Made by a program: the position numbers and the translations under genes. The notes below the pieces were generated by a model. That model made no database searches and was not told where the DNA came from. It was given only the letters and a program-made list of their open reading frames with translations. From Alphaproteobacteria bacterium (GTDB lineage: Bacteria; Pseudomonadota; Alphaproteobacteria; Holosporales; JBOFFI01), in NCBI GenBank assembly GCA_051657245.1, contig JBOFKI010000057.1, positions 1 to 39,981 on the forward strand: a stretch of DNA of 39,981 nucleotides. The letters run 5' to 3'. Shown here one piece after another: positions 32,278-33,270 of the stretch. Positions within the stretch are counted from its first letter, which is position 1, and every line of letters begins with the position of its first letter.

Positions 32278-32444
32278 CAAATAGACCCATTTTTGTCATC
32301 TCCGTGCCCCATTTTGTCATCCCCGCGGCGGCGGGGATCCAGGGAAAACTTAAAAAATGCCCCAGAATTTGAAGGCTGCAGCTTAGAGAAGGTTTGCCTG
32401 CAAAGGCGCTGAAACCTAGATTCCCGCCGCCGCGAGAATGACAA

Positions 32445-33006
32445 AAGAGCGGCAGGGATGAGATATCCAAGCTATCATAGCATCAAATTCCGGATCAGAG
32501 GAGCGAAACGCAAAAGGCTTACGGGCGCAAAGGCCATGGATAGCTTTGTTTATGGAGAAAACTGCCGTATGGAACTTTGCAACACCTCGCACGTTCGCGC
32601 TTAAACTCCCCTTTCCGGACAGTAAACGTGAACGCCAGGCTTAATCGTCGCCTTCGTCAGCATCCTCCCAGAGCGTGCTTAAGGTCAACCAAAGGGCCAG
32701 CCCCAAGAAAAAGAAACAGTCACTCAACCCCAAACTGTCTCCTCCTTCCCTTGGGGGGAAGAAAAAGTGTCGAAGGCGTGAAAGTTTCCGTTGCGCCAGA
32801 AAAGAAAAATCGTTTAACATCTTGTTTAGCCTTAAATGACTTGTGTTGAGTCGTTAAAGGTTAGCGGCATTGGGGAGTTAGCGCTCCCTGGTGTCGCGTA
32901 TTTGCCCCTGAAACATTTGCTCCAGAGACGCGAAATAAGTTCAGCGGGTTTTATGCAAGAAAAGCAGGTGCCTCCAAGCTTTTCAAGCACTTACCAACCA
33001 AACTTA
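32445..33006 (-). ncRNA. Putative large structured ncRNA, copy 2 (about 560 nt, or about 690 nt if the left REP doublet is included)
   Basis: Begins about 7 nt downstream of the -10 box with a long 5' hairpin; several stems are supported by compatible substitutions versus copies 1 and 3. Confidence 0.6.
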
Positions 33007-33012
33007 ACCCCC

Positions 33013-33041
33013 AATCTAGCAAAATTTGTCTTTAAGATCAA
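33013..33041 (-). promoter_or_regulatory. Putative sigma70 promoter inside element copy 2
   Basis: Minus strand TTGATC-N17-TAGATT. Confidence 0.65.
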
Positions 33042-33270
33042 TCAATTTTATTTCGAATTTGTGTCTTTCCTGCGCCTTTTTTTTCTTGTCATCCACGTGC
33101 CTATTTATCATTCGCGTCCCTCTTTGTCATCCCCGCGCAGGCGGGGATCCAGGAAAACCCTATAGAAATGACGCTTCAGGAGAGGTGCCAGGCGATAGGC
33201 TTGTCTAGATTCCCGCTTCCGCGGGAATGACAATAAGGCACCCCTGCTTTTCAACGGCTGAAATTTGCCA

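Follow-up and report, generated by a model that had tools for sequence, protein, structure and literature searches.

What does a repeat of about 0.95 kb carry when it recurs within a single bacterial contig, has no transposase and seems to hold no gene? The question is raised by the stretch of DNA analysed here (the window), the 39,981-nt contig JBOFKI010000057.1 (C57) of an alphaproteobacterial genome (G000; 1.37 Mb in 149 contigs, 46% G+C, 97.9% complete). An earlier note, made from the window alone, had described a multicopy non-coding cassette in which a large structured RNA is bounded by doublets of short palindromes, the whole being spread as one mobile unit. Our repeat search recovered the three colinear, same-strand copies on which that description was based, at about 13879-14967, 32293-33233 and 39421-39981 (copies a, b and c, the third being cut by the contig end). 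The cargo, however, is not a large structured RNA devoid of an open reading frame (ORF): on the minus strand the core of the repeat holds a 59-codon ORF that is under purifying selection and very probably is a real gene, together with long conserved untranslated regions (UTRs) and, probably, a short antisense RNA. We rate as about evenly balanced the proposal that these cores form a new, genus-restricted family of type I toxin-antitoxin-like modules that has been duplicated to new sites in G000.

The core of the repeat and its 59-codon reading frame

Within the window, the repeat search grouped a 264-nt segment (family D1) with copies at 14289, 32576 and 39718, sharing 81, 100 and 97% identity, respectively, and a 130-nt segment (family D4), which is the left palindrome doublet, with copies at 13883, 32319 and 39443 that are followed by further colinear pieces. 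A BLAST search of G000 with the central 646 nt (the core query) returned 21 segments on 15 contigs, 14 of them besides C57 and many at contig ends, indicating that the repeat is real, that it is present in roughly 12-14 copies and that the assembly was broken by it. The core also recurs in each of the three other species of the genus (G001, G002 and G003), and its recurrence on other contigs and in these congeneric genomes is far beyond chance. When the copies were aligned together with their flanks, homology was found to run from near TTCCGGATCAG (window position 32488) to near AGATCAATCAATTTTATT (33052). All copies are colinear except for a nested insertion of 126 nt, and none contains a transposase, as the earlier note had stated. 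The coordinates of the features discussed below are given in Table 1.

The same note had reported that no conserved ORF is present and that 1-2-nt insertions/deletions break the apparent frames. The latter is true of the plus-strand frames only. The minus-strand ORF is intact in 22 of the 23 complete copies from the four congeneric genomes (25 anchor places were found, two of which are cut by contig ends), the exception being the copy on C119, which has a 2-nt insertion; the core is thus a protein gene, but not a decayed one, which the note had named as an alternative. Among the 22 distinct ORF sequences, variable sites numbered 27, 18 and 34 of 59 at codon positions 1, 2 and 3, respectively, with an 'x.x' pattern in the hydrophobic part, and the mean nonsynonymous (dN) and synonymous (dS) divergences were 0.119 and 0.334 (dN/dS 0.35). 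None of the 102 distinct substitutions created a stop codon, whereas 4.5% of all conceivable substitutions would do so (P about 0.009). The two other frames contain stops in all 22 sequences, and the 59-codon frame is the only one open in 15 of the 16 aligned copies. In addition, the only gaps in the coding columns are the two columns of the frameshifted copy, as opposed to 48 gap columns among the 233 of the leader and 31 among the 164 of the 3' region; an automatic count gave 10 gap columns in 189 ORF columns, the other eight of which lie at or after the stop codon in alignment A2 as inspected by eye. Identity values are 0.84 for the leader and 0.85 for the ORF. Conservation is highest in a block that reads, on the minus strand, TAAGGCTAAACAAG-ATG, immediately before the coding region. 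In the metagenome-assembled genomes (MAGs) of the relatives, the NCBI annotation already has this ORF as a hypothetical protein.

Other frames in the core were considered and rejected. Two plus-strand ORFs of 90 and 109 amino acids (aa) occupy frames that are each open in at most 10 of the 16 copies and have variable ends. A second minus-strand ORF past the stop codon is open to the end of the alignment in 14 of 16 copies, but its frame shifts between copies, its start is not conserved and it would encode unrelated peptides in divergent lineages.

The predicted peptide, MLNDFSFLAQRKLSRLRHFFFPPREGG..LGLSDCFFFLGLALWLTLSTLWEDADEGDD, is basic at its N-terminus and has a hydrophobic helix, after which come a tryptophan and an acidic tail (WEDADEGDD, net charge -6). 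AlphaFold2 placed helices at residues 2-20 and 32-56, with a mean predicted local distance difference test score (pLDDT) of 68, rising to 76-85 over residues 31-50, and a 15-residue window with at least 10 hydrophobic residues was found in 10 of 12 scanned members of the family. A short segment at residues 26-33 (window about 32722-32745) is hypervariable at all three codon positions; the N-terminus before it is invariant, and the hydrophobic helix after it is conserved. The search criteria for type I toxins, as set out in the cited part of Fozo et al. (PMC2887945), are a length below 70 aa, a transmembrane region and a polar or aromatic C-terminus, and the same source describes Ldr/Fst peptides in which the helix is succeeded by a tryptophan and then by charged residues. 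The 59-aa peptide fits these criteria, as far as that part of the source gives them, in its size, its transmembrane-like stretch and its C-terminus. Searches for known type I families (Hok, Ldr/Fst, Ibs, TisB and others) revealed no sequence or profile similarity to the peptide, and no usable match was found in the ESM Atlas.

Predicted transcripts of the two strands

A promoter-like site lies exactly at the edge of the homology shared by the copies. Its TTGATC is invariant in 16/16 copies, the TGn is present in 16/16 and TAGRYT in 15/16. From this site an mRNA of about 450-520 nt would be transcribed, comprising a structured leader of about 185 nt, whose start is inferred from the position of the -10 element, the 59-codon ORF and a conserved 3' region, with the ribosome-binding site enclosed in a hairpin. 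Several helices in alignment A2 are consistent with such a transcript. Helix 3, at the predicted 5' end, has 13 pairs with 99% of cells paired, six of which vary on one side only (wobble) and three on both sides; the six wobble-varying pairs would be mismatches on the other strand. Helix 7 has eight pairs, all paired, and in helix 10 the sequence CCUU pairs with the AAGG of the ribosome-binding site (four nearly invariant pairs, with 98% of cells paired). Helix 2, which would join the ends of the mRNA, has four pairs, two of them covarying. The 3' region, with a mean pairwise identity of 0.79 in its first 60 nt and 0.60 beyond, closes into one long hairpin in a single-sequence fold, and a weak terminator-like hairpin was flagged at the homologous 3' place of the copy on C95.

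A 519-nt minus-strand RNA had a predicted energy of -178.3 kcal/mol (z -3.37), with none of 100 shuffled sequences as good. For the 16 full copies, RNAalifold gave -84.3 kcal/mol, 124 pairs and a covariation term of -6.55 on the minus strand, and -70.6 kcal/mol, 91 pairs and a covariation term of -1.53 on the plus strand, the consensus folds of both strands exceeding their shuffled and slid controls. The covariation score of the minus strand was 0.154 versus 0.122 in shuffles, with none of 500 shuffles as high.

Opposite the ribosome-binding site, a plus-strand segment of about 79 nt (32827-32905) folds into two stem-loops, both near-perfect, with a minimum free energy of -40.5 kcal/mol (z -7.03; none of 200 shuffles as good), its complement reaching only -19.2 kcal/mol (z -3.47). 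The plus strand is the more stable in all 16 copies (means of -41.5 versus -21.1 kcal/mol) because three G-U pairs of helix 15, invariant in 16/16, turn into A-C mismatches in the complement. In the first stem-loop, the left arm is complementary to the ribosome-binding site; the hairpin that this region forms in the mRNA (helix 10) is a weaker one. The second stem-loop with its U tail was flagged as terminator-like in two of the three copies scanned. Upstream, a possible promoter retains TTGC and TAACAT in 16/16 copies (alignment A1). A functional small RNA is probably encoded here. Lying wholly inside the leader, with two very stable stem-loops and a terminator-like hairpin at its end, such an RNA would pair with the mRNA at the ribosome-binding site region and so block translation or trigger mRNA decay, and each core would then be a self-contained module of two RNAs of the type I toxin-antitoxin kind.

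Variation within this segment is concentrated in the loops. The stem arms have zero to three variable columns each, whereas both 7-column loops are variable in 7/7 columns and occur in 13 versions among the 16 copies. In a young subfamily (10 copies, 45 pairs), the loops differ at 0.406 per site, as compared with 0.041 in the rest of the core, and loop versions occur in different combinations in different copies; for example, the copy on C10 combines the first loop of C79b with the second loop of C57b. Near-invariant stems with differing apical loops are the pattern expected if each copy finds its own partner through loop-loop contacts, and we interpret them as a sign of selection for copy-specific recognition between antisense RNA and mRNA.

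Known RNA families offered no alternative identity. At gathering scores, Rfam found only a tRNA in the window, and OLE, GOLLD, ROOL, HEARO, group I and II introns, RNase P and tmRNA were absent from 32200-33320 at E values up to 10. The sub-threshold Rfam matches at E up to 10 were limited to WsnRNA46, FinP and chance ones, and were not accepted. The FinP model aligned over its whole length to 32827-32903 of the plus strand, with 22.8 bits (E 0.09), below the cut-off of 45.

Table 1. Positions of the core, its predicted parts and the adjoining repeats in the window
Feature	Position	Strand	Basis or remark
Copy b: the conserved core, comprising the entire gene unit (putative promoter, 5' UTR, ORF and 3' region)	32488..33052	-	Stretch homologous across 16 full copies (four genomes); ~565 nt
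Copy b: 59-aa ORF (P0001), stop codon included	32641..32820	-	Translation; ATG to TAA
Copy b: ribosome-binding site AAGG, 9 nt before ATG	32830..32833	-	Read from sequence; in a 35-nt block (columns 337-371 of alignment A1) invariant in 16/16 copies
Copy b: promoter-like site, TTGATC (33041-33036), 17 nt, TGc + TAGATT (33021-33013)	33013..33041	-	Sequence and columns 11-40 of alignment A2
Copy b: predicted 5' UTR (~185 nt), 5'-terminal stem-loop and hairpin holding the ribosome-binding site	32821..33006	-	
Copy b: 3' region, conserved block just past the stop codon, then lineage-specific part	32488..32640	-	
Copy b: putative small antisense RNA of ~79 nt, with two stem-loops and a short U tail	32827..32905	+	Complement of the mRNA around its ribosome-binding site
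Copy b: possible antisense promoter, TTGCGC, 18 nt, TAACAT	32791..32820	+	Sequence only; TTGC + TAACAT in 16/16 copies (A1)
Copy a: core, split by nested 126-nt element	14074..14765	-	
Copy a: 59-aa ORF, intact	14354..14533	-	
Copy a: nested mini-element at TTAA directly after the stop codon	14225..14353	.	
Copy c: core, cut by contig end; 5' UTR and promoter beyond the window	39633..39981	-	
Copy c: 59-aa ORF, intact	39783..39962	-	
Left palindromic doublet, resembling a miniature inverted-repeat transposable element (MITE)	32305..32443	.	Palindromes TGTCATCCCCGC..GCGGGGATC and GATTCCCGC..GCGAGAATGACA, inverted orientation
Right palindromic doublet, shorter-spacer variant	33125..33232	.	

Distribution, gain of copies and the palindromic doublets

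We found the core in 3/3 other species of the genus and in none of the 37 more distant relatives searched. A 20-mer from the most conserved block, searched against one genome per species for 185,579 species, occurred in 13 stretches in three congeneric MAGs; a single Lactococcus match was unrelated. At the order level the peptide was present in 4/22 genomes only, which are the genus itself, and searching by protein yielded 12 matches in G000 and two to six per relative genome. A profile search of 1.84 billion representatives returned three matches, two of them distant relatives (P0011 and P0012). In metagenome contigs, none of 447 pattern matches to the protein profile was confirmed as a relative and all four matches to the 20-mer were unrelated; neither plasmids, searched by DNA, nor phages, searched by protein, matched the core or the peptide.

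At least five groups of copies have common flanks between species (L032/L033/L041, L035/L039, L037/L042, L040/L043 and C61/L045/L046). These syntenic groups are about 20% divergent from each other, suggesting an old paralogous family and not only a recent burst. One subtype has, in addition, been duplicated recently to new sites in G000, mostly among palindromic doublets. For example, copy a is flanked by genes for a patatin-like lipase and a C26 peptidase; the distance between the two is 52-53 nt in G001, G002 and G003 but about 1.3 kb here, the insertion at about 13856-15180 being absent from all three; at its junctions, about 45 nt have been replaced by 1.3 kb, and clean ends and a target duplication were not seen. 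The site of copy b is occupied in G002 and lacks the copy in G003 and G001. Of the mobile unit proposed in the earlier note, duplication to new sites is therefore upheld by the empty sites of copy a, while the doublets do not serve as its ends and neither defined termini nor a target duplication was seen.

Several further observations concern these sites. In G003, window positions 32284-34333, which hold the cassette of copy b and two ORFs, one of them a leucine-rich repeat (LRR) gene, are replaced by 17 nt (C35:107398-107414); in G001 the cassette is absent from this site and part of the LRR gene is kept. At the right end of the copy-a insertion, about 215 nt (window 14966-15180) are not in the empty site of the relatives; short pieces of this segment are repeated in C137, C95 and C134, and a second ATCCAAGGCTTG..TATA motif in it resembles the core's left junction. 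Locus L035 of G003 has flanks that map, left and right, to two G000 contigs (C119 and C111), each with its own copy of the core, suggesting rearrangement by recombination between copies. The nested mini-element of about 126 nt has inverted ends, ACCAAGT..ACTTGGT, and occupies the same TTAA spot in C57a, C10 (46-171) and C111 (5559-5685). Further copies lie at contig ends of C110 and C138 and at unrelated sites, both here (C10:3375-3499, C38 and C134) and in the three relatives.

As the earlier note had described, palindromic doublets flank both complete copies in the window. A genome-wide census of G000 counted 140 palindrome units and 49 doublets of about 135 nt, each doublet forming one long hairpin. 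Their ends, GTCATCC..GGGATCCAG and CTGGATTCC..GGATGAC, resemble the WsnRNA46 model of Wolbachia, although the match of 37 bits is below the cut-off of 65.3, and in being abundant and dispersed they are like the palindromic mini-elements of intracellular alphaproteobacteria (WsnRNA46 and the Rickettsia palindromic elements); here, however, they lie outside the gene unit. Of the 12 copies in G000 with the anchor motif, nine have a palindrome unit within about 640 nt. The other three have no adjoining unit (none listed for C61 and C111; the nearest to C10 is 1.2 kb away), and no doublets were seen in the flank alignment of the relatives' syntenic copies, where a motif census was not made. The cassette is thus not one unit: the doublets are an independent repeat family, separable from the core, and not the ends of the unit. 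Of the features of a MITE, inverted palindromic ends and a high copy number (49 doublets) were observed; none of seven transposase loci has such palindromes within 1.5 kb.

The RAYT and IS110 genes that the earlier note had proposed to look for were not found in G000: RAYT (Y1) transposases (PF01797) gave no match, the control search being positive in 6/14 reference genomes, and neither did the DEDD transposases of IS110/IS1111 (PF01548). Any mobility would therefore be non-autonomous. Transposase genes and fragments of IS630 type (18 matches) and IS5 type (12 matches), several with internal stops, are present in G000, mostly on short contigs and at contig ends (C36, C20, C5, C110, C102, C143, C59 and others).

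The window also gives a clue to the host. In two ORFs, at 7396-8478 (plus strand) and 33271-33822 (minus strand), leucine-rich repeats are encoded by 78-nt tandem repeats (D2 and D3), and one of the two ORFs also has an F-box domain; paralogues of this LRR/F-box family are numerous in each of the four genomes. Eukaryote-like proteins of this sort suggest life inside host cells, and the host is probably an intracellular symbiont with a genome of 1.2-1.5 Mb.

Related systems and competing explanations

The closest parallel is with the ldr/rdl loci in the long direct repeats (LDR) of Escherichia coli, which, like the present repeat, are about 0.5 kb in size. As described in the parts of the sources cited here, they too are present in several copies per genome, encode a small hydrophobic peptide with a cis-antisense RNA, were first taken as non-coding repeats and have the antisense RNA within the mRNA, 5' of the ORF (PMC2887945, PMC8594479); tryptophan and charged residues follow the hydrophobic helix (PMC2887945). 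In Hok/Sok and Ldr/Rdl alike, according to the cited section, the antisense RNA lies inside the mRNA, 5' of the ORF, and hairpins sequester the ribosome-binding site (PMC8594479). The present family differs from ldr/rdl in having no sequence similarity to it, a length of 59 aa with a 30-residue N-terminal extension and acidic tail, dispersed rather than tandem copies and, as host, an alphaproteobacterium with a reduced genome, and it is known from sequence alone. With hok/sok it would share a long structured mRNA, a masked ribosome-binding region, a short antisense RNA against the leader (here predicted) and possibly pairing of the 5' and 3' ends, which here involves only the four pairs of A2 helix 2; there is no homology, and an overlapping leader ORF like mok was not found. 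The candidate antisense RNA itself is like FinP, which controls traJ of the F plasmid, and other two-stem-loop antisense RNAs in its length of about 79 nt, its short spacer and tail and its complementarity to a ribosome-binding site, but this is a likeness of shape and not of membership, and the target here is a small peptide gene. Antisense RNAs of the FinP type recognise their targets through their loops. A search of titles and abstracts found no type I toxin-antitoxin system described in Alphaproteobacteria.

A number of results weigh against a toxin-antitoxin function. The putative mRNA promoter matches the consensus at 8/12 positions, against a threshold of 9, and was not listed by the consensus scan; nor was the antisense promoter, which is weak (3/6 and 4/6). 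The U tail of the candidate small RNA has only 3-5 U, the terminator scan did not flag copy b and no Rfam antitoxin RNA family was found in 32200-33320 at E up to 10. The structures tested were derived from the same alignments (A1 and A2), and the 16 sequences represent only about seven lineages, so that the covariation figures are modest. The hypervariable loops, moreover, could simply be unconstrained. As to the peptide, its hydrophobic stretch is moderate (best 19-residue Kyte-Doolittle mean of 1.3-1.9 in 11 of 12 proteins), it has the N-terminal extension and an acidic instead of a basic tail, and the distant relative P0012 (E 2e-4) is not hydrophobic in the helix region. Pfam offered only DUF6552 at E 0.15, PHROGs one weak match of unknown function (E 0.019), and NCBIfam, PADLOC and PDB nothing.

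Much of this would also suit harmless small membrane or regulatory peptides with long structured leaders and perhaps antisense control, duplicated passively by repeat recombination and showing no toxin-antitoxin behaviour, an explanation that we find doubtful but worth keeping in view. The coding evidence fits it equally well, and it is favoured by the moderate hydrophobicity, the acidic tail, the lack of homology to known toxins and the paralogous loci, at least five, that are syntenic across species like ordinary genes. It leaves unexplained, however, why the leader is conserved to the same degree as the ORF and contains an invariant block of 35 nt, why strand-specific hairpins stand opposite the ribosome-binding site and why a tenfold excess of change is confined to their loops; it would, moreover, be uncommon for a housekeeping gene to be kept in 5-12 copies in a genome of 1.2-1.5 Mb. 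Were the ORF incidental, its frame would not be maintained in 22 of 23 copies with such a dN/dS ratio, distribution of variable sites and near-zero insertion/deletion, which makes it improbable that the repeat is a large (~0.5-kb) structured non-coding RNA on a non-autonomous element bounded by doublets. The minus-strand RNA is significantly structured, with covariation above the controls, some blocks are invariant even at synonymous sites and empty sites indicate that the unit has been gained or lost, all of which would agree with such an RNA, but known large RNA families do not match it and the doublets are missing from three of the 12 G000 copies and were not seen at the relatives' syntenic ones. 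We consider least probable that the hairpins act as DNA, as sites of recombination or replication, in a selfish or decaying repeat without useful product. The conserved G-U pairs speak for an RNA from one strand and in DNA would be mismatches on both strands, the ORF is under purifying selection, and one frameshifted copy in 23 indicates that decay occurs but is rare; these points stand against the breaking of contigs at the repeats, the L035 flanks divided between two G000 contigs and the shuffling of loop versions between copies, which speak for such DNA sites.

The type I toxin-antitoxin-like family therefore remains the reading that we prefer. An extended form of it, which we hold to be unlikely, would be a self-spreading network of type I modules, in which the two recognition loops of the antisense RNA and the matching loops of the mRNA, changing about 10 times faster than the remainder of the unit and being shuffled from copy to copy, create private pairs of toxin and antidote, and in which new copies land among palindromic mini-elements and could make neighbouring DNA hard to lose.

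For genome scans, the locus is a caution that a half-kilobase 'non-coding' repeat may conceal a short ORF on the opposite strand. If the preferred reading is true, the cores would represent a new toxin-antitoxin family of type I, notable for its host and for the diversification of its loops, and its frozen stems and fast loops would provide a natural data set on how cross-talk is avoided among paralogous antisense pairs.

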